Source: an uncultured Gemmatimonadota bacterium
GTDB taxonomy: Bacteria > JAAXHH01
Length of the DNA stretch: 64,000 nucleotides
Assembly (NCBI GenBank): GCA_951812955.1
Contig: OX638340.1
Coordinates: forward strand, 1,856,001 to 1,920,000
Direction: 5' to 3'
Part shown: piece by piece, positions 11,368-62,323 of the stretch
Numbering within the stretch: position 1 is the first letter of the stretch
How the letters are laid out: each line of letters opens with the position of its first letter
Program-made: the position numbers and the translations under genes
Notes under the pieces: generated by a model
What the model saw: the letters and a program-made list of their open reading frames with translations, nothing else
The model's database searches: none
Told to the model about the DNA's origin: nothing

Positions 11368-11390
11368 TACGCTCACAAAACTAGAATGGC

Positions 11391-11765: not shown

Positions 11766-11846
11766 AAAGTGCCTTCTTGGGATGGTAGGTAGTAAAGATT
11801 GAGATTAGGGTTGTGCCAGTCTGGTCTGGCACCAAGGACGGGCATC

Positions 11847-12650
11847 ATGAATCAACCATTCGATGAAGCGGTAGAGGCCATTATAACCGGGGACGCAGCC
11901 ACCCTGACGAAGCTGTTGGTGGCACATCCCGATCTCATCAAGGCCCGGTCCCGGTCCGATCACAAGGCGACCCTGCTGCACTATGTGGCTGCCAATGGCG
12001 TCAAGGACGAGCTGCAAAAATCGCCGGAGAATGCCGCGGAAATCGCCCGGATACTGCTCGAGGCCGGGGCGGAGGTCGACACCCTCGCCGAAACATACGG
12101 TGGGGGCACGAACCAGACGACGCTATGCCTGCTGGTTTCCAGTATACATCCGGCGGCAGCGGGTGTGCAGCCGGCGCTGGTGCAGGTTTTATGTGATGCG
12201 GGCGCGGCTGTTAACGGAGTCGCTGATGACGGGGCGCCACTGGGAACCGCGTTGCTGTTCAGCTATAGGAAGTCGGTCGATATGCTGGCGAGGTGCGGCG
12301 CGCGCATCGATAATCTGCTTTTCGCCGCCGGCGTGGGCGACCTCGCGAGGGTGAAGTCCTTTCTCCACACAGACGGCCGGCTAAGACCCGAGGGGATGTA
12401 CCATGGGTCCCATCTCCCATCCCCTGCCGATGAGAAGTCACAGGTCGACCTGGCATTCGGCCTGGCCTGCTATCACTTGAGGATCGAAGTGATCCGGTTC
12501 CTCCTTGAAATGGGCGTGGATGTCAATGTTCGTTCGAACATTTTCGGTAGCATGCAAACCGGTCTATACTGGGCAACCCACGGTTTCCATACGGAGGAAG
12601 AGGAGCGCCCTGTCGTTGCGTTTCTGCAGTCACAGGGTGCTACCTCGTAA
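11847..12650 (+). CDS. Ankyrin-repeat protein
   Basis: Repeated ankyrin-like units (ATLLHYVAANGV...IARILLEAGAEVD; ...LVQVLCDAGAAVN; ...VIRFLLEMGVDVN). ATG at 11847 preferred over the TTG at 11799. Confidence 0.65.
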   Translation: MNQPFDEAVEAIITGDAATLTKLLVAHPDLIKARSRSDHKATLLHYVAANGVKDELQKSPENAAEIARILLEAGAEVDTLAETYGGGTNQTTLCLLVSSIHPAAAGVQPALVQVLCDAGAAVNGVADDGAPLGTALLFSYRKSVDMLARCGARIDNLLFAAGVGDLARVKSFLHTDGRLRPEGMYHGSHLPSPADEKSQVDLAFGLACYHLRIEVIRFLLEMGVDVNVRSNIFGSMQTGLYWATHGFHTEEEERPVVAFLQSQGATS

Positions 12651-45715: not shown

Positions 45716-45808
45716 ACCTGAACTTACGCGTTCCTTTCACGGTTCTTCCACTCTTCGTGGGCTAAACCTGAACTTACGCGTTCCTTTCACGGTTCTTCCA
45801 CTCTTCGT
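45716..45808. repeat. Exact 43-bp direct duplication (45716-45758 and 45766-45808) separated by 7 nt
   Basis: The two copies are identical base for base when read from the sequence. The right copy holds the last 32 nt of coding sequence, the stop codon and 8 downstream nt of the RraA-like gene. The left copy abuts the hutU GTG start. Confidence 0.95.
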
Positions 45809-46448
45809 AGATGAAATCTGGGCTGGTGATCATGTCGAAATGGGACCGCTCCCAGGTCCTGATTTCCCCCGCCTTTCTCAGCGTGTCTGCCGCGATGTCG
45901 AGGGGGATCTTCACCACGCCGTCGACGTCGGCGAGCAACAGGTCGCCGGTCTGAACCAGCAACTGGCCGGCGACGAGGGGACGGCCGACTGCCCGCACGT
46001 TGAAGGGACCGTGGCCCGATACCGTGCCGATGCCCCATATGGGCAGTCCCGCCCCCCGGATTCCCTCGAGATCGCGCACGCAGCCTTCGACAACGGCGCC
46101 CACCACGCCGAGCTTTCGGTGGATATGCGCCATGCCGTCACCGAAAAGGGCGGCACGCTTTGGGCGGGTGTCGACGTCCTTCATCACCGCGATCTTGGGA
46201 CCCGGTGTCTCGTTGAGCACGTCGTAGTAGTCGGACCAGTTCATGTTGGGGGGAGTGGGGTCCAGCGGCGTGACCTCGGAAGTCACGGCATACCCGACCA
46301 CGGTGCCGAATTCGGGCGTCAGGTACTGTATCTCCGGTCCGGTGTAATCGTCATTGGAAACGCCCTGTACTTTTTCTACGGCGTTGTATACCGTGGCCGA
46401 GTCGAATTCGGCCAGTCCGGTCAATACGGCGTTGTCCACGCGGGTCAT
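45774..46448 (-). CDS. RraA-family protein (HMG/CHA aldolase / oxaloacetate decarboxylase-like)
   Basis: 224 aa. FDSATVYNAVEKV, GAVVEGCVRDLEGI and the VSGHGP region fit the longer class II aldolase-type RraA family. Confidence 0.8.
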   Translation of the reverse strand: MTRVDNAVLTGLAEFDSATVYNAVEKVQGVSNDDYTGPEIQYLTPEFGTVVGYAVTSEVTPLDPTPPNMNWSDYYDVLNETPGPKIAVMKDVDTRPKRAALFGDGMAHIHRKLGVVGAVVEGCVRDLEGIRGAGLPIWGIGTVSGHGPFNVRAVGRPLVAGQLLVQTGDLLLADVDGVVKIPLDIAADTLRKAGEIRTWERSHFDMITSPDFIYEEWKNRERNA

Positions 46449-47359: not shown

Positions 47360-47396
47360 AAAAGGGACAGGTGCAATTCGCCTGTCCCTTTTCTTT
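47360..47396. terminator. Bidirectional rho-independent terminator between convergent genes
   Basis: Perfect 8-bp stem GGGACAGG (47364-47371) / CCTGTCCC (47381-47388) with a 9-nt loop. Flanked by AAAA on the left and TTTTCTTT on the right. The T-tract overlaps the stop codon of the minus-strand gene. Confidence 0.75.
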
Positions 47397-48453
47397 ACCA
47401 GTTTTCAGGATTCAAGCCGACGCGGATTCCCGCTTCTTCGATCTGCCGCCAGGTGGTATCGTCGATGCTGATCCCTTCACGGCGCCGTTCCTCCGCCAGC
47501 CTGAATTCCGGTTCTCCCGGAACGAGAATCTCTTCGAATCCCGGCGCGGTCCGGCTGGATTTCACGTGCCGGATCAATCCCTCGATCTCCTGGTAGTACC
47601 AGTCCAGGTCCGAGAAGAACGAAATATCGAAGACGGTGAAGAGCACGCCGTTGCTTTCCACGATCTGTTCGCCCTGCGCGCAACCCTGTCCGCTCAGCGC
47701 ACCGCCCAGGACCTCCACCATCAAACCCAGGCTGTAACCCTTATGGGCGACGATTCCGCCCATGGGCAGGATGGCGCCGTTGGGGGGCGGTCCCTTGATG
47801 ACCGTGGGATCCGTGGTGGAGTTGCCTTCGTGGTCGATCAACCATCCTTCCGGAACCCGCACCCCCTTGTTCGCGGCGACCCGGACCTTCCCTTCGGCGA
47901 CGACGGAGGTAGTCAGGTCCACCATGATGGGATCGGCGTCTCGACGGGGCGCCGAAAAGGCGATTGGGTTGGTGCTGATTCGTCCGTCGATACCGCCAAA
48001 AGGCGGAATCTGGCGTCCGAAGCGGCCCGCGTTGACGAAGGCCAGCCCGATCAGACCTTCCCGGGCCGCCATGAGGGGATAGGCGCCTACGCGGCCCACG
48101 TGGCTCGTACGCCGGAGCGTAACCGTGGCCGTGCCGTGCTTACGTGCTTTCTTCATGGCGAGCCGCATGGCGATGGTGCCGCCAACCTGGCCGAGGGCGC
48201 CGCCGTTGTCCACCAGGGCCGTGCAGGGACTTTCTCTCACGATGCCCACGTCGGCCCGGGCCTTGAATCGTCCCTCGTCCATAATGGCCTTGACGTACTC
48301 CGGTATCCGAATGGCGCCGTGGGAATCATGGCCGAAGAGATTCGAGTCCACGAGGTGGTCCACGACGCTGCGGGCATCGTCCTCGGTACAGCCGGCCGCT
48401 TCCAGCACCTCGCAACCGATGCGATGGAGTTTATCGGGGGTAATTACGGGCAT
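47395..48453 (-). CDS. Ldh2-family (malate/L-lactate/sulfolactate dehydrogenase type 2) oxidoreductase
   Basis: FGHDSHGAIRIPEYV, ALGQVGG and RRTSHVGRVGAY are typical of the Ldh_2 family. Confidence 0.8.
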   Translation of the reverse strand: MPVITPDKLHRIGCEVLEAAGCTEDDARSVVDHLVDSNLFGHDSHGAIRIPEYVKAIMDEGRFKARADVGIVRESPCTALVDNGGALGQVGGTIAMRLAMKKARKHGTATVTLRRTSHVGRVGAYPLMAAREGLIGLAFVNAGRFGRQIPPFGGIDGRISTNPIAFSAPRRDADPIMVDLTTSVVAEGKVRVAANKGVRVPEGWLIDHEGNSTTDPTVIKGPPPNGAILPMGGIVAHKGYSLGLMVEVLGGALSGQGCAQGEQIVESNGVLFTVFDISFFSDLDWYYQEIEGLIRHVKSSRTAPGFEEILVPGEPEFRLAEERRREGISIDDTTWRQIEEAGIRVGLNPENW

Positions 48454-48535
48454 TGTCTTCCTTTCCAGGTCTTACGTGTGTACCGACTCTTCAAACGCGC
48501 GATCTGCAACCCGCGGGCGAATGAAACCGGTCGGG

Positions 48536-49570
48536 TCAGGTTCTGTATTTCTCCAGTTTCTTCTGTAATCCCGGCCGTTCGAGCACAGCCCTGTTCACCA
48601 CGTAGGGCGGCTCTTCGCCCCTGGAGACGGCCAGGGCCGCCTTGACGCAGTCGTGGCCGATATCACGAAACAGCTCATGGGTCCAGCACGACGCGTGGGG
48701 CGCCAGGATGACATTCGGGAGCGTGAGCAGCTCATCATCGGGATCGGGCGGCTCCCGTTCGAAGACATCGATGGCCGCGCCCTTGATCCAACCGTCCCGC
48801 AGGGCCCGGGTCAGCGCTTCCTGGTCGACGATCGCGCCACGGGCCGTGTTGACCAGGAAGGCGTCCTCCCTCATGAGGCGCAGTTCCCGCGCGCCGATCA
48901 GGTGCCGGGTGTGTTCGTTCAACGGGCAGTGGATGGTCACGAACGTGCTGCGCCGCAACAGGGTCTCACGGTCCACCAGTACAACGCCCAGTTGCGCGGC
49001 CTCTTCCGCGGACACCGCCGGATCGCTGATGAGGACTTCGGACGGCTCGAAGGGCGCCAGCATGCGCACCACCTCGCGGCCGATCATGCCCATGCCAATC
49101 AGGCCGACCACGCGGCCGCGGATCTCGCATCCCATGTGATCGAACCGGACACCCCAGTCGTCATTCCGTACGATGGCGTCCTTAATCGTCACCCGGTGGC
49201 AGAGTCCGAGCATCAGGGCCATCGTGGCGCTGGCCACGGGCCTCCGGGTGGCCTCCGGAGTGATGGTAATCATGACGTCCGCGTCTGTCGCCGCAGCGAG
49301 ATCGATCATGTCGTAGCCCACGCCGGTTCGCGCGATGAGCGCCAGGCGTTCGACGCCCGCGAAGCTTTCACGCGTGTAGGCCTGTCCCATGGATACGACC
49401 ACGTCGAAGTCTGAAAGCTGATCCGGGGTGACGGGACTCCGGTCTTCGGCAAGGTACGCGTGAGAGACTCCGGCCTTGTCCAGCAGGTCGACTCCGAAAT
49501 CGTCGAACACGACCCCGCCGTCTGGACCCAGCAGGTCGGCGACCAGGGCTACGCGGAATTCATCGGTCAT
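48536..49570 (-). CDS. D-isomer-specific 2-hydroxyacid dehydrogenase, NAD-binding
   Basis: GLIGMGMIGREV Rossmann motif and the catalytic triad context NTARG, DVFEREP, APHAS. Confidence 0.85.
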   Translation of the reverse strand: MTDEFRVALVADLLGPDGGVVFDDFGVDLLDKAGVSHAYLAEDRSPVTPDQLSDFDVVVSMGQAYTRESFAGVERLALIARTGVGYDMIDLAAATDADVMITITPEATRRPVASATMALMLGLCHRVTIKDAIVRNDDWGVRFDHMGCEIRGRVVGLIGMGMIGREVVRMLAPFEPSEVLISDPAVSAEEAAQLGVVLVDRETLLRRSTFVTIHCPLNEHTRHLIGARELRLMREDAFLVNTARGAIVDQEALTRALRDGWIKGAAIDVFEREPPDPDDELLTLPNVILAPHASCWTHELFRDIGHDCVKAALAVSRGEEPPYVVNRAVLERPGLQKKLEKYRT

Positions 49571-49598
49571 ATAATGTGTTCCAGGATTGCGGTGCGTG

Positions 49599-51656
49599 TC
49601 AGAACAGGATCTGGGACGTCGACTTGGCGATCAAGACCAGGGAGACGGCCGCCATGCCGATCAGCCCAAGGCCGCACCCGTACCCGGCGAGGATCACCGG
49701 CGCGTAGGCGCGCCATCGTTTCTCTCCGTAGCGCCGTCCGAAATAGAACCTTCCCAGCATGGCGCCGATGAACGTGGGCAGCGTGTAGTGAATCCACGCG
49801 CCCGTGCCCAGTCCGGCCACCAGGCCGTAGAAAAGCAGCGGCGGCGCTTTGAGCAGGCTCAGCACCCCGTACAGCGCGAACGTGAACCCCATTCCGGCGC
49901 CGATATACTCCCAGCGGATCAGTTGCCCGATCACGTCTGAGCCGCCCGGCAGGGTAGACTTGATCCAGATCGTCTCCATCGTGGCCTGCAGCGGCCACAT
50001 CTTCTCGACGAAAGGATAGGCCGCGGACGGTATGGGCGCCAGTTTCCAGATCAGGGCGTAGAACACGAAACTGAATACGATAAGCAGTATCAGGCTCAAT
50101 ATATAGAGTTTGACCAGGCTTGGAAATCGCGTTCGGGTGAGTTCCAGCTGCCGGAAAGTCGCCACGACGCCGCTGTGATCGAAGAGGGGAACCGGGGCGA
50201 ACCAGATCGCCACCCCCTTGTAGCCCGACAGGTAGAAGGACCCCTCTCTGGCGTAGGGGAAGGATGACCCGTAGGGAGAGCCCGTCAAACCTATCATGCG
50301 GGCGCCGATGTAGGAGAAAAAAGGCGTCCACAGAAACCCGAACACCACGGAGATCCACACGGGAAACGCCGGTTCAAGGTAGTAGACCAGGGCAATAAAG
50401 CACAGGGTCGAAACCACCCAGAGCGCGATGGGGATGGGCAGCCTGAAATCACCCCTTTCCGGCGGCGGTTTGCGGGGGCCCTGCCCGCCGGACGCCCCAT
50501 CCGGGTCTCTCCTCAACGCGCGGGCGAAGGCGACCAGGCCGATCAGGCCGATGACCAGCGAAGTGCCGATGGAAGAAAAACTCAGCCAGAAGTCGATGGT
50601 GTTGTTGATGGAGGTGGGTATGGTGCTCATCCCCGGCGTCCAACTGTGCAACAGGCCGAAGTGGTAGAGGAGCGGATTGGCAATAAAGGTGATGACGAAG
50701 GAACTGATGAAGGTGCCGACCACGATCCAGAAGGGCAGGACGAATCCCACCAGGAGGGTGGCCATGTCCGTTCCGATGCCGATGGGCGACGCGGGCAGCA
50801 CGTCCCGGAACCGCGGCGTGAAGTCCGCGAAGGGAATGGGGAAGACCTCCACACCCTTGGTCAGCACCACGCCGGAAATGGTGGGGACGACGACATATAA
50901 TATGCCCCAGCCCAGTCCGATCATGGCGCCGACGGTGAACATTCGCCATCGCCAGGTCTCTTCCCCCGCCGACGATTCGGCCAGGGCGGTAGCGCCGGCC
51001 GCCTGCACGGGCGCCAGGGGGAAGGGCAGGCGTTCGGTGTCGGCCGTAATCCGGAAGAGCACGTATCCCAGGGAGAGCGCGTTGACCAGGCCGAGGATGG
51101 ACACGAGGACGGCCAGGAGAATGGGCTCCAGCCACTCCATGGAGAAGAGGGTCCGGGTGATCAACGAATCGGCACCCCGGGGCGGGGAAACCCACTGTGG
51201 AAGAAGCTGGGCCAGGCCGTCCGCCTGGGGAGACTGGATCAGGTACTGGAACCAGATCATCTTGGCGAAGGGCGCGCCGTGCACCGACGACCCGGCCGCC
51301 ATACCGCTGGCGCCCAGTCCCGTGGCCGCAAGCCCGGCGGCAAGCCAGTAGAGGATGATGGCTTCCTGAGGCTTGAGCTTTATAAACAGGCGCTTGCCGA
51401 TCTCGATGAACATGATGATGGTGACCCATTCCGCGGCGCCCGCGAAACTCTTGCCCGTCACCAGTTCCAGGTAGATCGCGCCGGGGAGCATGACCAGCCC
51501 CACGAAGAAGGCGGCCCAGATGATGCGGCTGCTGAACCCGTCCTCGTAGGGCAGGTTGTCCGGAACGATCTGCCACCGGTCATCCTGTTCGGCTCCGGTG
51601 GGAATCGCTTCCCGATCCCGCTGTTCGTGCTGCTCGCGTCTGTTTTCGTCGCTCAT
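49599..51656 (-). CDS. Polytopic membrane protein of unknown function (putative transporter, possibly OPT-superfamily-like)
   Basis: 685 aa with at least 14 hydrophobic segments and an acidic N-terminal tail. The LPFPLAPVQAAGATA segment loosely recalls the OPT LxFPSGxAxA motif. Architecture is similar to 57513-59507. Confidence 0.75.
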   Translation of the reverse strand: MSDENRREQHEQRDREAIPTGAEQDDRWQIVPDNLPYEDGFSSRIIWAAFFVGLVMLPGAIYLELVTGKSFAGAAEWVTIIMFIEIGKRLFIKLKPQEAIILYWLAAGLAATGLGASGMAAGSSVHGAPFAKMIWFQYLIQSPQADGLAQLLPQWVSPPRGADSLITRTLFSMEWLEPILLAVLVSILGLVNALSLGYVLFRITADTERLPFPLAPVQAAGATALAESSAGEETWRWRMFTVGAMIGLGWGILYVVVPTISGVVLTKGVEVFPIPFADFTPRFRDVLPASPIGIGTDMATLLVGFVLPFWIVVGTFISSFVITFIANPLLYHFGLLHSWTPGMSTIPTSINNTIDFWLSFSSIGTSLVIGLIGLVAFARALRRDPDGASGGQGPRKPPPERGDFRLPIPIALWVVSTLCFIALVYYLEPAFPVWISVVFGFLWTPFFSYIGARMIGLTGSPYGSSFPYAREGSFYLSGYKGVAIWFAPVPLFDHSGVVATFRQLELTRTRFPSLVKLYILSLILLIVFSFVFYALIWKLAPIPSAAYPFVEKMWPLQATMETIWIKSTLPGGSDVIGQLIRWEYIGAGMGFTFALYGVLSLLKAPPLLFYGLVAGLGTGAWIHYTLPTFIGAMLGRFYFGRRYGEKRWRAYAPVILAGYGCGLGLIGMAAVSLVLIAKSTSQILF

Positions 51657-51756
51657 GGATTACACTCGGCCCCGGCCCGGTACCTACCTATTCGCTCTTC
51701 CAATCTTCACTCCCCGATCACTGCTTATAATGCGCCATACGCGCCCATTCTCCCGC

Positions 51757-52914
51757 CTACTCCGCCCTGATATAGTTGCCCGCCTTGTCCCAGTCCGGCC
51801 GCGTCAGGCCGTTCAGGTCCCATACCACCTGTCCGGCGCGCACGGTCAGCAGGCATCGCAGCCGCCGGTCGCCGCGCATGCGGGCGAGGCCCGAATCGAC
51901 GAAGCCGAATTCCCCGTATTCCAGTTCCAGCACGGCGACGTCCGCCTCCGCGCCGATGCTCAGGGTACCCAGTTCCGGCCGCCGTATGGTCCGGGCGGGA
52001 TTGCGCGTGGAGCGCATGACCACGTCCTCCAGGGTCATCCCCATGTTCAGGCATTTCGACATGGTCGTGATCATGCTCGCGTTCGGCATAAGGGCACTGT
52101 ACTTGTGGAAATCCGTGCTGACCGTATCCGGCAGGAAGCCCTGCTCGATGGCCGGCACGGCGATGCGGAACCAGAAGCTGCCGCCGCCGTGGCCCAGATC
52201 GAACAGGATGCCCTTGTCCCGCGCCTCCCGGACGTAGTCGTTCACCCTGCCGCGATGGTCCAGCAAGGGGATGTGCTGTGCGTACAGGTGGGTGTGTATG
52301 TCGCCCGGACTCAGTTTCTTCAGCAGCAGGTCCCGGTAGCTGCGGTTCGGCTTCGGTGCGAAATCGATCATGGCAATGGCGCCGCTCCGCCGGGCCGCCT
52401 CGACGGCGCCGTCGACCGCCTCCCACCCCGGTCCGTTGAAATGGGCGGTCTTGGATCCCACGACGTGTTCCGGATACCTGCTGATCATGTCCGCGCAGGG
52501 CACGGGGTCCATCTCCGACACGTCCTGTTCCACGGCGCCTTCCATACCGGCGCCCACGATGTTGATCAGGGCCAGCACCCGGGTTATGGACTCGGCGATG
52601 ACCGTGTCCTTGAAGTCTTCGAATTTCTTCCACCCGGCGCCCCCTGTATCGAGCACCGTGGTCACGCCGTTGGGGAGCACGTGGGCATCGGGGAACACCC
52701 ATCCCCGGTAGCCGCCATAGGCGTGCATGTGGATGTCGATCAGGCCAGGCGTGACGTAATGGCCGTGGACGCGGGCGACCTGTCTCCCGTGCTCCGCCGG
52801 GATGTCGTGTCCAACCGCCGCAATCAGTCCGTCGTTGACGGCGACGTCCCGGCTATCGTTGATGCCGTTTTGGGGATCGATGACCTGTCCGCCCTTGATT
52901 ATGAGATCGTACAT
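51757..52914 (-). CDS. Amidohydrolase-superfamily metallohydrolase (dihydroorotase-like, COG3964/PRK09237-like)
   Basis: PGLIDIHMHAY metal motif, DLGHGGGSFWF, VSTDFH and MSKCLNMGMTLEDVV blocks. AGGAG lies between the upstream stop and the ATG. Confidence 0.8.
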   Translation of the reverse strand: MYDLIIKGGQVIDPQNGINDSRDVAVNDGLIAAVGHDIPAEHGRQVARVHGHYVTPGLIDIHMHAYGGYRGWVFPDAHVLPNGVTTVLDTGGAGWKKFEDFKDTVIAESITRVLALINIVGAGMEGAVEQDVSEMDPVPCADMISRYPEHVVGSKTAHFNGPGWEAVDGAVEAARRSGAIAMIDFAPKPNRSYRDLLLKKLSPGDIHTHLYAQHIPLLDHRGRVNDYVREARDKGILFDLGHGGGSFWFRIAVPAIEQGFLPDTVSTDFHKYSALMPNASMITTMSKCLNMGMTLEDVVMRSTRNPARTIRRPELGTLSIGAEADVAVLELEYGEFGFVDSGLARMRGDRRLRCLLTVRAGQVVWDLNGLTRPDWDKAGNYIRAE

Positions 52915-52924
52915 CGCTGCTCCT

Positions 52925-55900
52925 TCAGGTCAATTGCGGCGCTTCCGCGGGCGCTCGTTCCTCGACTTTCCGGTACTGGTCCTTGATGGACTCGGAAAGG
53001 GTACGCCACACGAGGAAACGTTTCCGCAGCACGGTGAAGAACCGGCGGTTGATGGTCTGCCACTGCGCAAGGTCCCCGCTGCGCCGGCGGATTGCGATCA
53101 TGATCCGGTACAGGCTTTCACCCGGTACGGGCTCCAGTTCCAGCGCCACGTCCTGGCTGATGGCGAGATCGTAGGGCGCGAGCCATACCGTCGCAGATAC
53201 ACGGTAGCCTTCTATAGGCCGGGCCGGTACCACGTCATGCGCCGTTCCCTCCGCGACGAAATCCTCGGCCGAACTGTCCTCGTGGGTCTGGAAAATGTGT
53301 GCCAGGTATCCCGCCAGCGGATAGGCCTCCGGGATGGTGACGGTAAAGGGAAACTCGAAGCGCCAGTCGTCGCCGTCGGGCGTTGGTGGCGCCCAGCGCC
53401 GGGTCACGTCCTCCACCGTCATGTCCGCGGCCTTTTTGGCCGGGTAGAGGGTGGACAGGAACACGACGACCATGACGACCACCGTCGCGTATACGGTCGA
53501 CAACGAGGAATAGTTCAGCGACAGGCCGCCCAGCAGGTCCCACTGCGACAGGCCCATGGTGATGATCTGGCCGGTGAGGTACCCGAACACAGCGCCTAGG
53601 GTGGCGAATACGGCCGCTTCGGCGATGAACAGCGCGGCAACGTGGTTCGGCGCCAGGCCCACGGCGCTGTATACGCCGATCTCCCGGAACCGTTCGAACA
53701 CGGCGCCCATCATGGTGTTCAGAACCAGGAACGCCGCGATGAGCACCGGGATGATCAGGTTGGCCAGGCCCGAGACCGAAGTGGCGCCAAGGGAGCTGTA
53801 GACCTTCACCTCGTCTTCCGTTCCGACAAACACGGCCAGGAGGACCCGTGACATGAAGGCCTCCACGGAATCGCGGAGTTGATCGCCATCCGCGAACCCC
53901 GTGATCGCCACGGACCGCGTGGATCCGTTCAGGTCGAGGGTCTGGCGGTAGGGCAGGACCAGCACGTTGCGGGATGGCAGGTGTTCGGAGGCCTGGATCG
54001 TTGACATGAATACCTCCACGTCCATTTCGGTCAACGAACGGGTCATGGAAAAACTGGCGGGCATGATGCTTTCGTCGTCCATGTCCCGGTAGGCGTCCAG
54101 GCCATCGGATTCGAGCAGTCCGATCACGGTATAGCGGCCGCCCAGGATCTCCACGACCGCCGTACCTACGTCCTCGGGCTCCACGTCCAGCCTTTCGGCC
54201 AGTTCCGTGGGCAGCAGACACACCGCCCTTTCGTCAGGACCGAACCATCGCCCGCCCGGTACCAGGTAGCGGTCCAGCCCGGAAATGGCCGGTTCGTCGG
54301 CGTGAAGTCCGAGCAGGGACTGTACCGTGGTGGAGGTTCCCCGGCCCGGCGCCCGCAGGTCTATGTAGGGGCTGGTGAGATCCTCGGGCTCGTACCACGA
54401 CCTGGGCACGACCTCGGCCTGCGCTTTGAAGGCGTTTTCCACGTAGGGCAGGAAAGAAGAGGGCAGCGAGTGCCACGACAGGTTGCGCATGAGGACGCCG
54501 TCGTACGGGGGGGCGTTCTCGCGGTCCAGCGTATAGAACTGGATGCCGGTCCTGAAGGAGGTGAAGGAAAGCACGGTAAAGGTCAGCAGGGTCAGCGTCA
54601 CCGCCGTCAGAGCCGTGCGCAGCTTCCGCTTGCGAAGGTTCGAAATCCCGAGCGATATGGCCACCGCCGTGGCGCTCAGCCGGCCGATGTCCGCCTCGTG
54701 AAGGCCGGCCGCCGACCGGGTCAGGTTCTTCATCTCCGTGTCGAACCGCGTGACGATCATGGTAATGATAATCAGCGCCATGGCCAGGATGATGAAGGCG
54801 AGGAAAACCATGTAGGGCGTCAGGCTGAGTTGAAAGGCCGGATGCACGTTCTGCAGCAACAAAAAGACCGCCGCGAAGATCACGCCCACCGCGAGCAGCC
54901 GCTTGCGAATGTCCGGGAACCCGAAGAACAGTCGCTCGAGGAAGAAGCAGAAGGGTACCAGCAGCATGAAGTAGAAAACGATGCCGTCCACCGTGTCGTC
55001 CGCGGCGTACCGTACATCGGGATAGGCGCGGGCCTCGTAGCCCCACGCTTCCCTCGACCGGGCCACGAAGGCATCGTAGCGGCGGTCTTCCAGGGCTTCC
55101 CGCGCCGCCCGAAGCGCCTGCGTGCTTTCTTCATGCAACTCGGCTGCCCGGGCGTTCGTCACGCCGTGGTCCTCCAGTTTCATCAGCCGCGCCCTGTTGA
55201 GCGACCACAGGTCCAGGGCGCTCTGGTAGAAGGGATAGAGAATCGGCCCCCGGTCCGCCGTGAAGCCTTGTCCCTGTGCCAGGGCCATGACGTCGTCGGA
55301 GATGCTTTCCGGCGGATCGTCGAGCCAGGACTCCGGCGTATTGGTCAGCAGGTACTTGACGCCCCGGGGACCCGCGCTCATGAACATCTTGACGCGGTCC
55401 TCGGGCTTTGCGAAGACCACCGCGGCGTTGGTCATCCAGTTGCCGAAGAAACTCTGGTCTTCCACGAAGGCCGCCCCGTACTTTCGCAGTGGGCTGTTGT
55501 CCCGTCCGAGCACGGTCAGGTTGTCGAGAGCGACGAAGACGCCGGGATCGACGATATCGAAGAGGTTGATCTCCTCGCACGGAAAGAGGACCTGTATGGT
55601 ATTGTTCACCTTGGACGAATTCGGCACCGCGAGAGGGAAGGTGGCGTCGCCCTCCTCCCCCAGGTCCGGCGCGTACACGACCCTGCCTGTGTCGTCCAGG
55701 CCATAGCTGCGAACCTCGGTCGGGCCCTTGGAGTCGCGGACCATGGAAAAACGGAAGTAACCCATCGAATCCGCGTGGGTGACCATGAACCCCCGCACGC
55801 CGCTGTGGCTCTGGTAGCCCGGCTCGTAGACGACCAGGGCATCGGATACCGGGGTGTTGGGCTTGAAGAAATCCACGGTGCGGTCGAACTCGAGGACCCG

Positions 55901-57511
55901 GCCCTCGATGTCGCGGCCGTCGTCTTTCAGCCGAATGGACTCGTCCACGTCGAAGGCCTCGGGGTCCGACAGCATGGCCGGCAGCAAGGTGCCGATGGTC
56001 CTGATCTGCCGGACCAGGTTGGGGAAATCGACGTGCTCGACCCGGTCGACAGGCGTATCGATCAGCAGCCTGTTGTCGTTCACCGTGGAGAAGGTCATGC
56101 CATGCAGCCCCGCGAGCGTGACCATCTCATGATCGAAGGCTGGACCCGCGGGCATGTAGCTTTCCTGGGACCTGAGCGAAGGCGTCAGCGTATTGAGGTA
56201 GGCCGTCCGGCTGTCCTCCCGATCGTACACGCCGGCCTTGCGTGCGTAATTCATGTACCGGTCCGCATAGGGTTCGTACAGTATATCCAGATTCGAGGCG
56301 AAGAAGATGTAATCGCCGTAGCTGAACAGCCCGACCTGGTCCATCCGGCTGGTCAGGTCCAGACCCAGGAAAAGCGTGAAGGGGATCCGGTCCGCCTCAG
56401 GTATGCGTTCCAGGAAAAAATCGTCCGTCCGATAGTGGCGGTCCAAGAAGTCGTTTATGCCCTGCATGCCGTGGAAATGGGCGGACGTGGCCAGAAACAG
56501 CACGGTGTATCCGGGAGGATGGGCGCGGAACACGTCCAGCAGTTCCAGCATCGCCGCGATGCCGCCCGCGCTCTCGGCGCCCGGGGCCTGTCCGGGTACG
56601 ACCGACATGGCGTCATAGAATGCCGACAACACGACGACGCGGTCCTTCCACTTTTCTGTCCCGTCGCCGCCGGGAATCGGTTCGTCCCGACCCTGTATCC
56701 ACCCCATGACGTTCCAGGTTTCAGCCCGTTCCCACGACATGCGACCCCGGATCGTCACGTCGATGTTGCCGGGTCCTTCGGACCGGGCGGCCTGCAGCAC
56801 CTTCGCCGCGTGGGGATCGGGAATCCAGAACCGCGGGACGTCTGCGGGCACGTCCAGGATCTTGCGCTGGGCCTGGTTGTTGGTCACCGCGCCCGGACCG
56901 CTGTCGTAGAACAGGATAGCCTGCGCGCCCAGCATCCGCGCGTTGAGATACTGGTCTCGCCCGTCGAAATCGATCAGGACGATGCTTCCCTCGATCTCTT
57001 TCCCGTTGAAGGCCTGGAATTCGCCCCGGCGTCCATAGTGCAGTGGGCCTTTGATGCCGTTGGGAAAGGAATTCAGCCGGACCAGATTGGGCCAGAACTG
57101 GTACACCGGGATTTCGGTTTCAACTGAATCGTGCAGGGTAAGCGTGAACCCGTGGTCGACCGGCGAGGAAACGGTGAAGGTATCGATGGTTACTTCGGAC
57201 AGTCCCCCTGCATGGAACGCGTCGACCACGTACTCCATGGCCGCGCGGTTCCCCGGGTAGCCCACGACGCGCGACGGATGTGCGCTCATCGACCGGACGT
57301 GGGCCTCGACGCCCTCCACGGTCACGATTTCGGAGACTTCTTCCCAGGTCACTGGAGCTTCTTCGAGGGGCCTGGGAGTCACGTCATCGGGAAGCGAGAC
57401 GAACCTCAGGATCACGTGCTCCGTGACCCAGGCCGGACCGGCCACGGCCACGGCGAGGAAGAGCAGGACGCCCACGACAAGAAAGAAAGTTCCGAAAATC
57501 CGAGAATACAC
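52925..57511 (-). CDS. Giant membrane protein: N-terminal TM + PA/M28-peptidase-like ectodomain (degenerate active site) + beta-sandwich region + 3 TM + FtsX/MacB-type permease module + C-terminal cytoplasmic domain
   Basis: 1528 aa with a GTG start 1 nt after the upstream stop. PA-like segment GKEIEGSIVLIDFDGR..ARMLGAQAILFY. M28-like blocks VVVLSAFYDAM, PGAESAGGIAAMLEL and VLFLATSAHFHGMQG. FtsX TM RKRKLRTALTAVTLTLLTF and FtsX core NTMMGAVFERFREIGVYSAVGLAPNHVAALFIAEA. Confidence 0.8.
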   Translation of the reverse strand: MYSRIFGTFFLVVGVLLFLAVAVAGPAWVTEHVILRFVSLPDDVTPRPLEEAPVTWEEVSEIVTVEGVEAHVRSMSAHPSRVVGYPGNRAAMEYVVDAFHAGGLSEVTIDTFTVSSPVDHGFTLTLHDSVETEIPVYQFWPNLVRLNSFPNGIKGPLHYGRRGEFQAFNGKEIEGSIVLIDFDGRDQYLNARMLGAQAILFYDSGPGAVTNNQAQRKILDVPADVPRFWIPDPHAAKVLQAARSEGPGNIDVTIRGRMSWERAETWNVMGWIQGRDEPIPGGDGTEKWKDRVVVLSAFYDAMSVVPGQAPGAESAGGIAAMLELLDVFRAHPPGYTVLFLATSAHFHGMQGINDFLDRHYRTDDFFLERIPEADRIPFTLFLGLDLTSRMDQVGLFSYGDYIFFASNLDILYEPYADRYMNYARKAGVYDREDSRTAYLNTLTPSLRSQESYMPAGPAFDHEMVTLAGLHGMTFSTVNDNRLLIDTPVDRVEHVDFPNLVRQIRTIGTLLPAMLSDPEAFDVDESIRLKDDGRDIEGRVLEFDRTVDFFKPNTPVSDALVVYEPGYQSHSGVRGFMVTHADSMGYFRFSMVRDSKGPTEVRSYGLDDTGRVVYAPDLGEEGDATFPLAVPNSSKVNNTIQVLFPCEEINLFDIVDPGVFVALDNLTVLGRDNSPLRKYGAAFVEDQSFFGNWMTNAAVVFAKPEDRVKMFMSAGPRGVKYLLTNTPESWLDDPPESISDDVMALAQGQGFTADRGPILYPFYQSALDLWSLNRARLMKLEDHGVTNARAAELHEESTQALRAAREALEDRRYDAFVARSREAWGYEARAYPDVRYAADDTVDGIVFYFMLLVPFCFFLERLFFGFPDIRKRLLAVGVIFAAVFLLLQNVHPAFQLSLTPYMVFLAFIILAMALIIITMIVTRFDTEMKNLTRSAAGLHEADIGRLSATAVAISLGISNLRKRKLRTALTAVTLTLLTFTVLSFTSFRTGIQFYTLDRENAPPYDGVLMRNLSWHSLPSSFLPYVENAFKAQAEVVPRSWYEPEDLTSPYIDLRAPGRGTSTTVQSLLGLHADEPAISGLDRYLVPGGRWFGPDERAVCLLPTELAERLDVEPEDVGTAVVEILGGRYTVIGLLESDGLDAYRDMDDESIMPASFSMTRSLTEMDVEVFMSTIQASEHLPSRNVLVLPYRQTLDLNGSTRSVAITGFADGDQLRDSVEAFMSRVLLAVFVGTEDEVKVYSSLGATSVSGLANLIIPVLIAAFLVLNTMMGAVFERFREIGVYSAVGLAPNHVAALFIAEAAVFATLGAVFGYLTGQIITMGLSQWDLLGGLSLNYSSLSTVYATVVVMVVVFLSTLYPAKKAADMTVEDVTRRWAPPTPDGDDWRFEFPFTVTIPEAYPLAGYLAHIFQTHEDSSAEDFVAEGTAHDVVPARPIEGYRVSATVWLAPYDLAISQDVALELEPVPGESLYRIMIAIRRRSGDLAQWQTINRRFFTVLRKRFLVWRTLSESIKDQYRKVEERAPAEAPQLT

Positions 57512-57512
57512 G

Positions 57513-59507
57513 TCAGTCTATCCCGTAGATATGATGCCCCGCGTGGGGGAACCATATGTAATCAACGAACATGGAGATGACCACGCCGGTAGCCACACCG
57601 AAGATAAGGCCCAGGAAGAAGGGCTGACCCTTTCGGTACAGCTCGATACCGCCGACCCACATCATGATGCTCTTGATGACCCAGCAAACGAACATGGACG
57701 ACACGATAGCGCGTGCGGGCCACGAGTAGGAAAGGAAGAAACCGAGGGGATGCAGCGGCCAGCCGGGCAGCCGGGCCCTCAGGGTCATGAGCAGGAACAT
57801 GAGCCAGCCGCCCACCATGAAGAACATGAGGCGGGCCGTGTCCGGTCCGAAGGGATCCCGCATCTTGGTGAGCGTTTCGTTGTAGGGGATGGTCGATCCG
57901 ATCCTTCCGAACCACCATCCGTTGGTGAACTGCCGCGTGCCCTGGTCGAATCCCAGGTAGATCGTCCAGATCAGCGCGATCACCACGCCGATCACCGCGG
58001 CGGACAGGACTGTCCAGCCCAGTCCACGGTGCCAGCGCGCACCGATCTCTGAAAGCTTGGCCACCTGCATGAAGGCGGGCATGAAGGTCGATTTGATCTC
58101 GCTGACGGGTCCATAGGTCTGGGCCATCGCCGTCATGGTGGACATGGACAGGTTCGCCGACCCGACCGAGTAGAATACGAGCACCTGGGCGATCATGGGC
58201 GAACGCACGTAGGGCAGCCCGGCTTCGGCGATGATGCGGGAGACGCCGATATAGATGACGAAGACGCCCGCGAGGAGGAACACGGCAATGGGCACGCTCA
58301 TGCCCAGCTGGTTCAGCCACACGATCCCGTAGACGAACCCGCCGAGAAAGCCGAAGACGGCGACCCGGTAGGGCAGCATCTCATCGGAGTCGTCCAGGTC
58401 CGATCTGCGGCCGAACGCATGGGAGAACACCGCGCGGATGTGAAACCTGGCCCGCCACAGCCCCCAGGCTACGAACACGATGAAGGCGCCCATGTTCTGC
58501 CAGTCCAGCATGGGGTGGATTGACGTGTAGTTGTCCCTGCCAGGTATGTCGTAACCGATCCGTTGTGCGATGCCTACCTGGATGATCCCGATCATGTAGA
58601 ACACCCAGAACCCGGCCAGCACGTCCAGGTTGACGAAGTAGGAAATACCGAGGATGGCTGGCCGGAAGTTGATCTCCAGCGGAGGGAATCCTTCGCCGAA
58701 GACAATGGGCGGCGCCGACCCGAAATAGGGAAACTGGGGCACGACCGGTGTGAAGTATCCGATAATGTTGTACATCATCACGCAGAAAGGGATGGAAAAG
58801 CCGATCCAGAAACGTTTCTCGGTCATAAATTCCGGGATGCGTCCCGACGATTCCATGCCTCGCGTCAAGGCGAGGGGGATCTGCATCATGGGGAATACCA
58901 GTTTCTCGTGTTCGACCCACTGTCTTCTGAGGATCACCACGAGACACAGCCCCATGAAGATGATCGGTACGATGAAGGTCAGCCACCAGAACAGGGGAAT
59001 GCCCCACACGCTCCAGGGTATGGACTCACCGGGCGGGATACCGTCGACGAACCAGGTCAGCGCATTGCCCTGGTTGGTGACGTTCGCCCAGGGTTTCAAA
59101 TAGGGATAAAAGTATTCTGCCCACTGGTTCTCGGGCGTCGCCAGGAGATTCGGCGCCATGAGCGTGGAGATAAACGGGGCGCCCATGCCGTTGGTCGACA
59201 GCCCGGAAGCCGCCATGCCCATGGCCAGGGGGATGACGAACTCGTGGGACGTCAGGGCCCAGTCTTTCTTCCACCGGGCCAGTATCACGTTGAACAGGAT
59301 GAGATACGCAAAGGCCAGGAACAACGCACCGATGTGAAGATGGTCCGCGCCGAGTTGAGACGAGGCCATGGTGTACTGAAAATAGGGGACGATCAGGGAA
59401 ATCAGGACGACGCTCGTCAGGCCCAGGAGGATGGATCTCGGCGTAATGATCCGGGTCGCGGTCGTCGGGCCGGCGGAAGAGGATACACTTTGCTGGGCTG
59501 AGGCCAT
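57513..59507 (-). CDS. Polytopic membrane protein of unknown function (putative transporter)
   Basis: About 664 aa from the ATG at 59507; the ORF opens at a TTG at 59615 inside the likely promoter. At least 14 hydrophobic segments. The C-terminal WPLHPLGFFLSYSW...GGIELYRKGQPFFLGLIFG parallels the C-terminus of 49599-51656. Confidence 0.75.
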   Translation of the reverse strand: MASAQQSVSSSAGPTTATRIITPRSILLGLTSVVLISLIVPYFQYTMASSQLGADHLHIGALFLAFAYLILFNVILARWKKDWALTSHEFVIPLAMGMAASGLSTNGMGAPFISTLMAPNLLATPENQWAEYFYPYLKPWANVTNQGNALTWFVDGIPPGESIPWSVWGIPLFWWLTFIVPIIFMGLCLVVILRRQWVEHEKLVFPMMQIPLALTRGMESSGRIPEFMTEKRFWIGFSIPFCVMMYNIIGYFTPVVPQFPYFGSAPPIVFGEGFPPLEINFRPAILGISYFVNLDVLAGFWVFYMIGIIQVGIAQRIGYDIPGRDNYTSIHPMLDWQNMGAFIVFVAWGLWRARFHIRAVFSHAFGRRSDLDDSDEMLPYRVAVFGFLGGFVYGIVWLNQLGMSVPIAVFLLAGVFVIYIGVSRIIAEAGLPYVRSPMIAQVLVFYSVGSANLSMSTMTAMAQTYGPVSEIKSTFMPAFMQVAKLSEIGARWHRGLGWTVLSAAVIGVVIALIWTIYLGFDQGTRQFTNGWWFGRIGSTIPYNETLTKMRDPFGPDTARLMFFMVGGWLMFLLMTLRARLPGWPLHPLGFFLSYSWPARAIVSSMFVCWVIKSIMMWVGGIELYRKGQPFFLGLIFGVATGVVISMFVDYIWFPHAGHHIYGID

Positions 59508-59576
59508 GGAAAGGGCCGGATTGTGATACTTGCGGTGACTGAAATACGGTAATGAATCTAGTCTGCGGGTCCAGAA

Positions 59577-59605
59577 TATGTAAAATGGCAGACGGTATAA
59601 GTCAA
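59577..59605 (-). promoter_or_regulatory. Candidate promoter TTGACT-N17-TACATA for the large minus-strand operon
   Basis: Read on the minus strand: -35 at 59605-59600 and -10-like at 59582-59577, about 70 nt upstream of the ATG at 59507. Back to back with the plus-strand promoter. Confidence 0.25.
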
Positions 59606-59660
59606 AGAAAAACAAAGTTCCATGAGGTCCTGAGCCACCATCGGCCAGACCTTTTCGTTG

Positions 59661-59689
59661 TTGACACGATTCCGGTTTGCGGGGATATT
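59661..59689 (+). promoter_or_regulatory. Candidate sigma-70-type promoter TTGACA-N17-GATATT for the RND exporter gene
   Basis: Perfect -35 hexamer at 59661-59666 and -10-like GATATT at 59684-59689, about 40 nt upstream of the GTG at 59730. Confidence 0.4.
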
Positions 59690-59729
59690 TCCATACCTTG
59701 ATGTACCCGTTTCATACGAGGGATTTACA

Positions 59730-62270
59730 GTGAAGGCCGAAACGAGAGCCGCCATAGACCGCTTGCTGAACAGGTACATCGCCTTCATCTGCCGCCATCC
59801 GGCGAAGATCCTCCTGGGTGCGCTGCTGACCGCATTGCTCTCCGCGCATTTCGCATCCAGGCTTCAGCTTAAAACCGACTTCGTGGAACTGCTCCCGGAA
59901 GGCTACCGGAGCGTCGACGACATTCACCGGATCACGGAGCGCGTCGGCGGCATCGGCAACCTGACCGTCGTCATTGAAACGGAAGACCTGACTTCGGCAC
60001 AGCGGTTCGCCGACGACCTCGCCGGCAGGATCCATTCCGATCTTCCCGAGGGGTATATCCGGTATATCGAGTACCGGGTGGACGAGGAGAAGCGCTTCTA
60101 CGAAGACCACAAATATCTGTATGCGGATCTGGAGGACCTGGAAGAGATCCAGAACCGCCTGAGCCGACAGATCCTGAAGACGAAACTGGAGCAGAACCCC
60201 CTCTTCGTTTCCGAGGAAGACCTCGGGCTGGAAACGGAAGACGAACCGTTTACCTTGAGCGATCTGGAAGAGAAGTACGAAAAGAAAGCGGGGGAGAAGC
60301 TGGACAAGTGGGTCGACGGCTATTTCACGGGGCACGACGAGCAGGGGCAGTTTCTCGTCATGGTCCTGAAACCCTTCGGTTCGTCGACCGGCGTTTCCTT
60401 TTCGCGGGACCTGTGCGAACGGGTACTCGCCATCGTAGAAGGGCTTGACCCCCCGTCATACCATCCATCGCTGAAAGTGGGCCTCACCGGCAAGTACCGC
60501 CTGATCCTGGACCAGTACTCTTCCGTCCAGCGGGAGATCTTCTCGTCCGCCGCCTTCACACTGACCCTGGTGGCCCTGGTCATCTTCCTCTACTTCCGCA
60601 CCATCGTCCCGGTCATCAACATCACGCTGGTCGTGGTCGTCGGCATACTCTGGACGTTCTGCCTGACCTATTTCCGCATTGGCTACCTCAACATGCAGAC
60701 CGCCTTCCTGGGCGCCATCATCATTGGGAACGGCATCAACTACGGCCTGATCCTCATGGCCAGGTACAAGGAAGAAAGGCTGCAGGGAGCGGACGCCCTT
60801 GAAGGCGTGCAGATCGCCTTTCGGAATACGATTACCGCGACGGTCACAAGCGCGGCGTCCACGGGCCTCGCATACGGCACGCTCATGATCACTGATTTTC
60901 GCGGCTTCAATCACTTCGGGTTCATCGGCGGCCTCGGCATGCTGCTGTGTTGGATTTCCACCTTTTCTATCATGCCGGCGCTGCTGATGCTGTGGGACCG
61001 CACCCGTTTCGGGCGGAAGACCTGGACGCGGAAGGTCTCGCGGGGCGGGTCGCTGACCCATCTCGCCAACCTGGTGCAAAAGGCGCCGCAGGCCGTGGTG
61101 GGCACGAGTATCTCCCTGGTCGTGCTGGGTACCGCCCTCCTGGTGTGGTGGCTTCCGAATTCCTTCGAATACGACTTCTCGAAACTGCGAAACGAACCGC
61201 GGGGCGATACTTACGAGCGGATCCTCAACCACCGCGTAAACGCCCTGTTCGGTATATCGCAGTCTCCCGCGGTTATCCTCGCGGACCGCCTGGACCAGGT
61301 CCCGGGCATCCGGCGCGCCGTGCTGGACAAGAAAGAAGCGGAGAAAGAGGGTCCCAAACCGACCATCGACCGGGTGCGAACCATCTTCGATCTGCTGCCG
61401 GAGGACCAGGAAGACAAGATCGACGTGCTCTGGGACATAGATTACATGCTGGACACCAATCCGCCCGACGAACTTGGCATACCGCCCGACCAGCTCGAAA
61501 GGATCAACGCGTTCCGAGAGAACCTGAGCCTGGATGAAATCACCGTTGATGACCTGCCCCAGGCGCTCACGCGTCCCTTCGAGGAGCGGGACGGGACAGT
61601 GGGCAGGCTCGTCTACGTCTACCCGAGGTCGGACGCCGGACTCTGGAACGGCAGGAACCTGATCCGGTTCGCGGAAGTCGTCCGTTCCAACCGCCTGCCA
61701 GACGATGAAGTCATCTATTCCTCCGGTGAGGCCGTGGTATTCGCCGACATGCTGAAGGCCGTGGACCGCGACGGCCCCATTGCCACGGTCGCCTGCTTCG
61801 TGGGCGTTATCGCGCTACTCTTACTGGCATTCCGCAGCGTCCACGCGTCGGTCGTGATCCTGGCTTCCCTGCTGGGCGGCATGCTGGTCATGGGCGGCGT
61901 CATCGCCGTCTTCGACATCAAGGTGAATTTCTTCAACTTCATCGTCATACCCACTACGCTGGGGATCGGCGTGGACTACAGCGTGAACCTGTATCAACGC
62001 TACCGCCTTGACGGACGCGGTTCCATACGTAATATGGTACAGCATACAGGCGCGGCCCTGGTCATGTGTTCGTCCACGACGCTGATCGGTTACACTTCTC
62101 TCATGCTCACGTCCAACCGGGGCCTGCATTCCTTCGGCATCATGGCCAACGTGGGAGAGATCGCCACGCTGGCAACGGCCCTGGTCGCGCTGCCCGCCTA
62201 TCTGCTTATTATGGAAAAGCGGATGAGGAACAAGGCGCCTGGAACGCGGAGTCCGGTTCACGCCGCTTGA
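59730..62270 (+). CDS. RND-superfamily exporter, MMPL/COG1033-type (HpnN-like architecture)
   Basis: Two 6-TM bundles, each preceded by a large loop, with SSD-like blocks (FLGAIIIGNGINYGLILMARYKEE; TTLGIGVDYSVNLYQRY). GTG at 59730 is preceded by GAGGGA and lies downstream of a TTGACA-N17-GATATT promoter. The ORF opens at 59658. Confidence 0.8.
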   Translation: MKAETRAAIDRLLNRYIAFICRHPAKILLGALLTALLSAHFASRLQLKTDFVELLPEGYRSVDDIHRITERVGGIGNLTVVIETEDLTSAQRFADDLAGRIHSDLPEGYIRYIEYRVDEEKRFYEDHKYLYADLEDLEEIQNRLSRQILKTKLEQNPLFVSEEDLGLETEDEPFTLSDLEEKYEKKAGEKLDKWVDGYFTGHDEQGQFLVMVLKPFGSSTGVSFSRDLCERVLAIVEGLDPPSYHPSLKVGLTGKYRLILDQYSSVQREIFSSAAFTLTLVALVIFLYFRTIVPVINITLVVVVGILWTFCLTYFRIGYLNMQTAFLGAIIIGNGINYGLILMARYKEERLQGADALEGVQIAFRNTITATVTSAASTGLAYGTLMITDFRGFNHFGFIGGLGMLLCWISTFSIMPALLMLWDRTRFGRKTWTRKVSRGGSLTHLANLVQKAPQAVVGTSISLVVLGTALLVWWLPNSFEYDFSKLRNEPRGDTYERILNHRVNALFGISQSPAVILADRLDQVPGIRRAVLDKKEAEKEGPKPTIDRVRTIFDLLPEDQEDKIDVLWDIDYMLDTNPPDELGIPPDQLERINAFRENLSLDEITVDDLPQALTRPFEERDGTVGRLVYVYPRSDAGLWNGRNLIRFAEVVRSNRLPDDEVIYSSGEAVVFADMLKAVDRDGPIATVACFVGVIALLLLAFRSVHASVVILASLLGGMLVMGGVIAVFDIKVNFFNFIVIPTTLGIGVDYSVNLYQRYRLDGRGSIRNMVQHTGAALVMCSSTTLIGYTSLMLTSNRGLHSFGIMANVGEIATLATALVALPAYLLIMEKRMRNKAPGTRSPVHAA

Positions 62271-62323
62271 GACCGACTTCTACAGCCCTGCCGTTCGGAA
62301 ATGAGTCGAACAAGGCCGGTTAC

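Follow-up and report, generated by a model that had tools for sequence, protein, structure and literature searches.

A MacB/FtsX-type giant without an adjacent ATPase gene is linked to divergent OPT/YSL-superfamily transporters in a putative uptake-and-catabolism operon of an uncultured Gemmatimonadota bacterium

A 64,000-nucleotide stretch of the genome of an uncultured Gemmatimonadota bacterium (contig OX638340.1, positions 1,856,001 to 1,920,000; the whole stretch is called the window here) carries six minus-strand genes that encode two polytopic proteins of 665 and 685 amino acids (aa), a 1,528-aa membrane protein (the giant), an amidohydrolase and two dehydrogenases (Table 1). Here, we found that homologues of the giant, which joins an M28-like ectodomain to a MacB/FtsX-type module and has no neighbouring ATPase gene, are encoded close to OPT-superfamily genes in the loci sampled, and that both polytopic proteins are divergent members of the OPT/YSL superfamily of secondary transporters. 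With moderate confidence, we read the locus as a proton-motive-force-driven uptake-and-catabolism system around an undescribed, widely conserved membrane module. An earlier note on this DNA had suggested that the set might take up and process a peptide- or depsipeptide-like substrate or else remodel the envelope; the former is still our best functional guess, but support for remodelling is marginal.

The family of the giant is large. A word-indexed search returned more than 360 homologues, an exhaustive search gave 1,473 cluster representatives (50% identity) at E ≤ 1e-30, and at least 597 matching places were found among species-representative genomes, the best 80 of which lie in metagenome-assembled genomes of Latescibacterota, Gemmatimonadota, Zixibacteria and Handelsmanbacteria. 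Multiple copies per genome are common, and an exact-sequence lookup of the giant of the window matched no record. Linkage was counted by calling open reading frames (ORFs) in the fetched loci and searching them with hidden Markov models of the three membrane families, and the sample comprised 68 giants, each flanked on either side by 3 kb or more of sequence. An OPT-superfamily gene was present within 3 kb of the giant in 65 of the 68 and within 10 kb in all of them. Within 3 kb, a gene of the type of the 665-aa protein (DUF6785 type, D) was found alone in 28 cases, a gene of the 685-aa type (O) alone in 14 and both in 23; each of the other three giants had its DUF6785 gene farther off but still within 10 kb, one of them beyond transposases. 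Sixty partners were immediately adjacent to the giant on the same strand (median gap 19.5 nt), and the commonest orders were giant-O, D-giant-O (the type of the window), D-giant, giant-D-O and D-giant-D. The linkage was kept even in distant giant variants of 1,737 and 1,853 aa. Co-occurrence of the giant with the polytopic genes in other genomes, on which the earlier proposal of a single system depended, is therefore well supported. In addition, DUF6785 genes without a giant exist, in tandem or singly; because giants are always near OPT-type genes while the reverse does not hold, the giant looks like an accessory of OPT-type transporters. No further universally conserved neighbour was found, and the largest other cluster, a TPR protein in 23 of ~84 loci, belonged to one synteny group.

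The 665-aa protein matched Pfam DUF6785 (369 bits) and DUF6784 (78.6 bits) and gave no match to Pfam OPT (PF03169) even at E ≤ 10, so we treat it as a relative within the superfamily rather than as a PF03169 member. Its AlphaFold model, for which 76 homologues were used, had a predicted local distance difference test (pLDDT) score of 90.9 and a predicted template-modelling score of 0.91. When this model was compared with the PDB by Foldseek, HvYS1 was found (7wst/7wsr; E 8e-9, probability 1.00, template-modelling scores 0.64/0.70 over 680 columns), and there was no other credible match in the PDB, the remaining ones having template-modelling scores of ~0.1. Sequence identity to HvYS1 is 13-14%, and profiles of both polytopic families found nothing among PDB sequences; the kinship of the DUF6785 protein with HvYS1 is visible through fold comparison only. 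HvYS1 (Yellow Stripe 1) is the barley iron-phytosiderophore transporter, a proton-coupled symporter of the OPT family whose homodimer forms via an extracellular β-sheet (PMC9691689).

The 685-aa protein has no Pfam or NCBIfam match, and its homologues carry the NCBI name 'peptide transporter'. One relative, P0235, which is 55% identical to it, passed the Pfam OPT cutoff (28.7 bits against 25.8; profile positions 132-619 of 623). Furthermore, hhalign aligned the 685-aa family with the DUF6785 family from the N- to the C-terminus (probability 94%, E 1.2e-7, 561 columns), so that, judged by profile alignment, the 685-aa protein is a full-length remote paralogue of the DUF6785/6784 protein. The fold match of the DUF6785 protein to HvYS1 and this full-length alignment together place both polytopic proteins in the OPT/YSL superfamily. 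Compared with described OPT/YSL transporters (TC 2.A.67, PF03169), the DUF6785/6784 protein is alike in overall fold and size (about 650-690 aa) and the 685-aa sister family connects to the Pfam OPT model through P0235; the differences are that the two proteins of the window both fail that model and that two diverged paralogues are often encoded together in the present loci. By analogy with the superfamily, proton-coupled import by the OPT-like proteins is to be expected. No characterised OPT/YSL transporter is known to us to have an FtsX-type protein as an obligatorily linked partner. Whereas the earlier note could assign none of the three membrane components to a characterised transporter or machine, two of them, the polytopic proteins, can thus be assigned.

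Two further observations concern the transporter family itself. A second DUF6785/6784 gene is located ~7 kb past the divergent MMPL gene, beside a rhodanese gene, in several close relatives (L004, positions 1-1130; L008-L011; L013-L015), which places it beyond the right end of the window, and no giant was visible beside it in the stretch examined. In locus L087 (6511-11978), a tandem DUF6785/6784 pair that has no giant begins with a 4-nt overlap with a gene for an M32 carboxypeptidase, a peptide-related context for the transporter family alone.

The giant consists, in order, of a transmembrane (TM) anchor, a PA/M28-like domain, ~300 unassigned residues, a helical region, three TM helices, the MacB/FtsX module and a START-like domain, and we infer that its N- and C-termini are both cytoplasmic. 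The union of an extracytoplasmic PA/M28-like domain with an FtsX/MacB-type module, noticed previously from the letters alone, was confirmed by Pfam and NCBIfam (M28, 30.2 bits against a cutoff of 21.3). Searched against PDB sequences, the family profile of the giant found 2ek8, a PA-containing aminopeptidase (E 1.8e-16), followed by YwaD, AAP, nicalin and the transferrin receptor. As in the PA-domain M28 aminopeptidases (2ek8; YwaD, 6hc6), the PA domain is inserted in the M28 fold; the giant differs from them in that its ectodomain is anchored in the membrane at both ends within a polytopic protein and contains ~300 extra residues without assignment.

The zinc site was read from alignments to 2ek8, 6hc6 and 2anp, with ligands numbered as in the Aeromonas aminopeptidase (H97, D117, E151, E152, D179 and H256). 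The equivalent of H97 is F298 (F or Y in the family; just two of 18 sequences have H), an invariant H345 stands in place of the catalytic E151, and F346 in place of the zinc-binding E152. The loop of the bridging D117 is one residue shorter and holds E313, D179 is kept as D385, and the equivalent of H256, judged by eye, is not His. These alignments indicate that the canonical co-catalytic di-zinc site is absent and, because its ligands are missing, the M28-like domain is probably a binding domain rather than a peptidase. The transferrin receptor and nicalin likewise lack catalytic metal ligands and, like the giant, have a helical region that follows. In larger relatives of the giant (P0362, 3,053 aa; P0391, 2,451 aa), the ectodomain adds Big_5 Ig-like modules, or LysM and NMB0315-domain-I modules, the latter combination being seen in only one larger variant. 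Separately, five homologues of 721-817 aa (P0373, P0385, P0387, P0390 and P0480) comprise only the C-terminal half of the giant and may be either truncated gene calls or genuine forms without an ectodomain.

The two PDB results raise the question of metal-chelate uptake, in which the OPT/YSL-like proteins would import a metal-nicotianamine- or siderophore-like complex and the pseudo-peptidase ectodomain would be its receptor, as in the animal M28-like transferrin receptor. The sole structural match of the DUF6785 model is an iron-phytosiderophore transporter, and the ectodomain profile also matches the non-catalytic M28-like transferrin receptor and nicalin. However, the HvYS1 fold match indicates a superfamily and not a substrate, the amidohydrolase and the two 2-hydroxy/oxo-acid dehydrogenases of the operon look catabolic rather than metal-handling, and no metallophore-synthesis or metal-regulator genes were found in the flanks examined. 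We consider metal-chelate uptake unlikely.

In the C-terminal half of the giant, the FtsX domain has four TM helices, the first two of which are separated by a periplasmic core domain, as in the MacB/FtsX type VII class, and the three additional TM helices that precede it enclose an invariant HPAF motif in a putative periplasmic loop. In the predicted model of this half, mean pLDDT was 64 for the TM helices and above 80 for the periplasmic and C-terminal domains. Compared with MacB/LolCE/FtsX type VII permeases, the giant has three added TM helices, 800 residues of ectodomain at its N-terminus and a START-like domain at its C-terminus, and its constant gene partner encodes neither a membrane-fusion protein nor a lipoprotein or hydrolase activator but a secondary transporter.

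A search of PADLOC showed that residues 774-1414 of the giant (53270-55192 of the window) match PDLC01991 (CARF_m8--CARF_LolE_TM; 193 bits, E 2e-57). In the giant and in each of four relatives tested, only profile positions ~9-604 of 810 were matched, at 164-195 bits, and the C-terminal domain of the giant searched by itself had no PADLOC match. The PDLC01991 family thus has a membrane module (three TM helices and an FtsX/LolE-type domain) homologous to that of the giant over ~600 positions. It differs in its last ~200 profile positions, presumably CARF-like (the domain order is our inference), which the giant leaves unmatched, bearing the START-like tail and the large ectodomain instead. PDLC01991 seems to be a sister family in which another cytoplasmic domain occupies the tail position of the giant, and this supports the tail as an exchangeable sensor position. 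The strength of the same match would also suit an anti-phage defence protein or second-messenger effector akin to the PADLOC 'CARF_m8 LolE_TM' candidates, but the portion presumed to be CARF is unmatched in every family member tested and the neighbours are transporter, catabolic and housekeeping genes, not defence genes, which makes this explanation exceedingly improbable.

MacB/FtsX type VII ABC transporters depend on an ATPase, and the giant has none fused or encoded beside it. No ORF with both a Walker A motif and an LSGGQ signature was found in the window, and none was found less than 4.3 kb from the giant in 86 related loci; those farther away belong to ordinary ABC importers. The earlier remark that the giant has no ATPase thus holds for its gene neighbourhood too, here and in the related loci. 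Three ADOP-type FtsX/MacB_PCD permeases are encoded elsewhere in the window (in the one at 25-2142, the first ~140 positions of the ADOP model are missing), and orphan FtsX permeases seem common in the source organism. Like the giant, the ADOP proteins (Acidobacterial duplicated orphan permease, TIGR03434) are FtsX-type proteins without an adjacent ABC ATPase gene and are paralogous within a genome; they carry two FtsX modules in ~800 aa and no M28-like ectodomain, whereas the giant has a single FtsX module and is not a member (21.7 bits; the cutoff is 622). One candidate for a short giant, a 616-aa FtsX protein encoded close to the giant-less DUF6785 pair of L087, was rejected, being a generic duplicated FtsX permease.

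Membership of the FtsX family also invites a link to peptidoglycan, in which the giant would sense or organise wall turnover, by analogy with FtsEX and its partners EnvC or PcsB, while the wall peptides released would be recycled by the OPT-like proteins. One larger relative carries LysM and NMB0315-domain-I modules, and action of the cargo enzymes on D-configured products is conceivable in principle. Nevertheless, LysM occurs in only one variant, neither FtsE or another ATPase nor a conserved hydrolase partner gene is encoded beside the giant, and there are several paralogous modules per genome, which is atypical for division machinery; we judge a role in wall turnover distinctly unlikely.

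Several observations weigh against an uptake system with an ATP-independent giant, which is nonetheless the reading we prefer. The 685-aa protein and 19 of 20 scanned members of its family fall below the Pfam OPT threshold. In the M28-like site, D300, H345, D385 and E462 are invariant and E313 is nearly so, and since this set is kept, a remodelled catalytic or metal site is possible. Identities of giants and of their adjacent DUF6785 proteins were correlated in a mirror-tree comparison (r = 0.94 overall) but hardly so for pairs below 60% identity (r = 0.15); the overall value thus reflects shared orthology, and co-diversification is not demonstrable beyond close orthologues. In other clades, the module has heterogeneous neighbours, often housekeeping genes, which give no independent clue to the substrate. 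Finally, the ER-x-x-EIG motif in the coupling loop of the giant is invariant. In MacB-type proteins, the coupling loop is the docking site of the ATPase, and it is therefore possible that an ATPase is encoded at an unlinked site.

This last point is shared by the view that the giant is an ATP-driven exporter or extractor of the MacB type whose ATPase gene lies at another site, an arrangement proposed for ADOP-type orphan permeases, and that the adjacency to OPT genes reflects a shared pathway rather than a complex. The three ADOP-type permeases without an ATPase gene in the window suggest that unlinked ATPases may be the rule here. However, the near-universal and often translationally coupled adjacency to importer-type OPT genes would then be hard to explain, the C-terminal position of the giant that would contact the cytoplasm holds a conserved domain of its own, and no membrane-fusion or outer-membrane partner genes are conserved nearby. 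We regard such an exporter as quite improbable.

To return to the operon of the window, the six ORFs agree with the single transcription unit proposed before, and the junction lengths (1, 10, 100, 28 and 82 nt, in the order of transcription) were reproduced exactly from their coordinates. The same six genes in identical order were found in relatives L004-L016, in which the giant is 66-98% identical (98% in L004, 87-92% in L007-L014, 74% in L015 and 66-67% in L005 and L016); because the order is kept over this range, the cluster is conserved and not a chance arrangement. The first ORF (57513-59615) is 700 aa long with a TTG start, while an ATG at 59510 gives 665 aa and is most likely the start, since it agrees with the beginning of the Pfam model and with homologue lengths of 650-676 aa. 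For the promoter-like region suggested at 59577-59605, sigma-70 hexamers are indeed present, but such sites are barely enriched across the region (6 found against 3.3 expected), so they count for little as evidence. The strong bidirectional terminator proposed at the other end was upheld: a 12-bp G+C-rich stem lies between an A-tract and a T-tract (AAAAGGGACAGG...CCTGTCCCTTTT), and it was not listed by a consensus scan owing to its interrupted loop. Rfam and tRNA scans of the window gave no matches.

Table 1. Coordinates of the features discussed, numbered from the first letter of the window.
Feature	Position	Strand	Evidence
Polytopic protein, 665 aa, DUF6785 + DUF6784; OPT/YSL-superfamily secondary transporter	57513-59510	-	Pfam, AlphaFold, Foldseek
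Giant, 1,528 aa, 8 predicted TM helices	52925-57511	-	Pfam PA, M28, MacB_PCD and FtsX; hydropathy and conservation
Giant, periplasmic ectodomain (residues 28-835)	55007-57430	-	PA-inserted M28-like domain (~60-520), ~300 unassigned residues, helical region (~755-835)
Giant, three extra TM helices (residues 836-925)	54737-55006	-	Hydropathy, conservation
Giant, MacB/FtsX-type module (residues 950-1365)	53417-54664	-	Elbow helix, TM1, periplasmic core domain, TM2-4
Giant, C-terminal cytoplasmic α/β domain (residues 1366-1528)	52928-53416	-	Predicted helix-grip (Bet v 1/START/AHA1-like) fold
Amidohydrolase (metallohydrolase), cog3964 type, 385 aa	51757-52914	-	NCBIfam NF006689, 367.2 bits (cutoff 371)
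Polytopic protein, 685 aa; putative divergent OPT-family transporter, sister family to DUF6785/6784	49599-51656	-	hhalign, OPT-passing relative
D-isomer-specific 2-hydroxyacid dehydrogenase, 344 aa	48536-49570	-	Pfam 2-Hacid_dh_C, 185 bits; under every NCBIfam equivalog cutoff
Ldh_2-family dehydrogenase (malate/L-lactate/ureidoglycolate type), 352 aa	47395-48453	-	Pfam Ldh_2, 353 bits
Promoter-like sigma-70 hexamers in the divergent intergenic region shared with the MMPL gene	59555-59605	-	Consensus match only
Bidirectional intrinsic terminator closing the operon	47360-47396		Fold -25.8 kcal/mol, z = -4.1 against shuffles
Divergent MMPL/HpnN-like RND locus	59658-62270, 62066-63958	+	Pfam/NCBIfam
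Three ADOP-type duplicated FtsX/MacB_PCD permeases, ~800 aa	25-2142, 2701-5106, 20017-22422	+	TIGR03434, 300-311 bits (cutoff 622)

The three soluble enzymes had been counted as parts of the system; they do share its operon, but they are clade-specific cargo outside the conserved core. The amidohydrolase scores slightly under the cutoff of NF006689/PRK09237, the NCBIfam equivalog for cog3964, and its PDB relatives are 8je0 ('Amidase'), 2ogj (Atu3266), 8wzy and 2ics. Its gene, located between those for the giant and the second transporter, was present only at giant identities of 66% or more, and both it and the D-2-hydroxyacid dehydrogenase are confined to the clade of the window. An Ldh_2 gene was also found 0.1-7.6 kb from giant-D-O modules in five loci of a Latescibacterota group in which the giant is 43% identical (L076, L077, L079, L080 and L085; in L080 at 18491-19804 on the minus strand, 360 bits), which is a second, independent association with the giant module. 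Characterised cog3964 members reportedly hydrolyse esters of the acetyl-(R)-mandelate type, a reaction that yields an (R)-2-hydroxy acid, the kind that a D-2-hydroxyacid dehydrogenase would oxidise. Because the product type suits this dehydrogenase, the guess of a peptide- or depsipeptide-like substrate is reasonable.

The MMPL/HpnN-like RND gene that diverges from the operon had been linked to the set in the earlier note. The gene is present, but in the 98% relative L004 (1708-7782) it heads a same-strand string with BshC, a PIG-L deacetylase and a GT4 glycosyltransferase, so that it looks like part of a bacillithiol-biosynthesis operon. We rejected it as a component of the system, as it is adjacent to the operon only in the closest relatives and other genes intervene at 66% giant identity. 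On the other side, past the terminator and a convergent DUF2911 gene, genes for histidine ammonia-lyase (42460-44049), urocanase (44066-45715) and an RraA-like protein (45774-46448) follow on the minus strand; this block is kept in the 98% relative and not at 66% giant identity. Elsewhere in the window, positions 2000-12000 have a G+C content of 0.50-0.53 against 0.57-0.65 in the remainder, hold genes for an APH-type phosphotransferase (6079-7086) and a serine β-lactamase-family protein (8073-9215), and may have been acquired horizontally. In addition, an ECF-type sigma factor gene (24827-26245, minus strand) encodes 472 aa in total, with a C-terminal extension of ~300 residues.

In the uptake-and-catabolism system that we favour, the OPT-like proteins would be the translocators, importing a small peptide-like, acylated or chelate-type solute, possibly as a homo- or heterodimer by analogy with the dimeric Yellow Stripe 1. 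The giant would be a receptor or gate on the periplasmic side, tethered to the membrane and, like MacB and M28B proteins, probably a dimer; its pseudo-peptidase and MacB-type periplasmic domains would capture or present the substrate. Delivery of the substrate, or regulation, would be the purpose of its conformational coupling, which may be to a cytoplasmic ligand at the START-like C-terminal domain and not to ATP hydrolysis. In the clade of the window, the amidohydrolase may hydrolyse the imported compound and the dehydrogenases may oxidise the released 2-hydroxy acid. A bolder version, to which we give only tentative credence, is that the module is a new transport machine in which ATP-free mechanotransmission of the MacB type, driven or gated by ligand binding to the START-like domain or by the conformational cycle of an attached proton-coupled OPT transporter, moves substrate between the pseudo-peptidase receptor and the translocator; such a machine would be a principal means of nutrient acquisition in Latescibacterota, Gemmatimonadota and related uncultured phyla, in a role comparable to that of SusCD in Bacteroidota.

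Each component is a member of a known superfamily, and full-text literature searches returned nothing relevant on DUF6785, DUF6784, PF20581 or PF20580, on OPT in Latescibacteria or on FtsX with M28; to our knowledge, it has not been described before that an ATPase-less MacB/FtsX giant and OPT-type transporters are obligately paired. Little is understood of either bacterial OPT-family transporters or 'orphan' FtsX permeases, and here they are genetically locked together, in phyla that have hardly any cultured members but abound in marine, sponge-associated, sediment and soil samples. The clade-specific enzyme cargo offers a concrete entry point to the substrates. Should the module prove to be a transporter that has its receptor tethered to it, it would represent a new architecture for secondary active uptake, give a function to two Pfam DUFs and provide a testable idea for the role of ATPase-less MacB/FtsX proteins.

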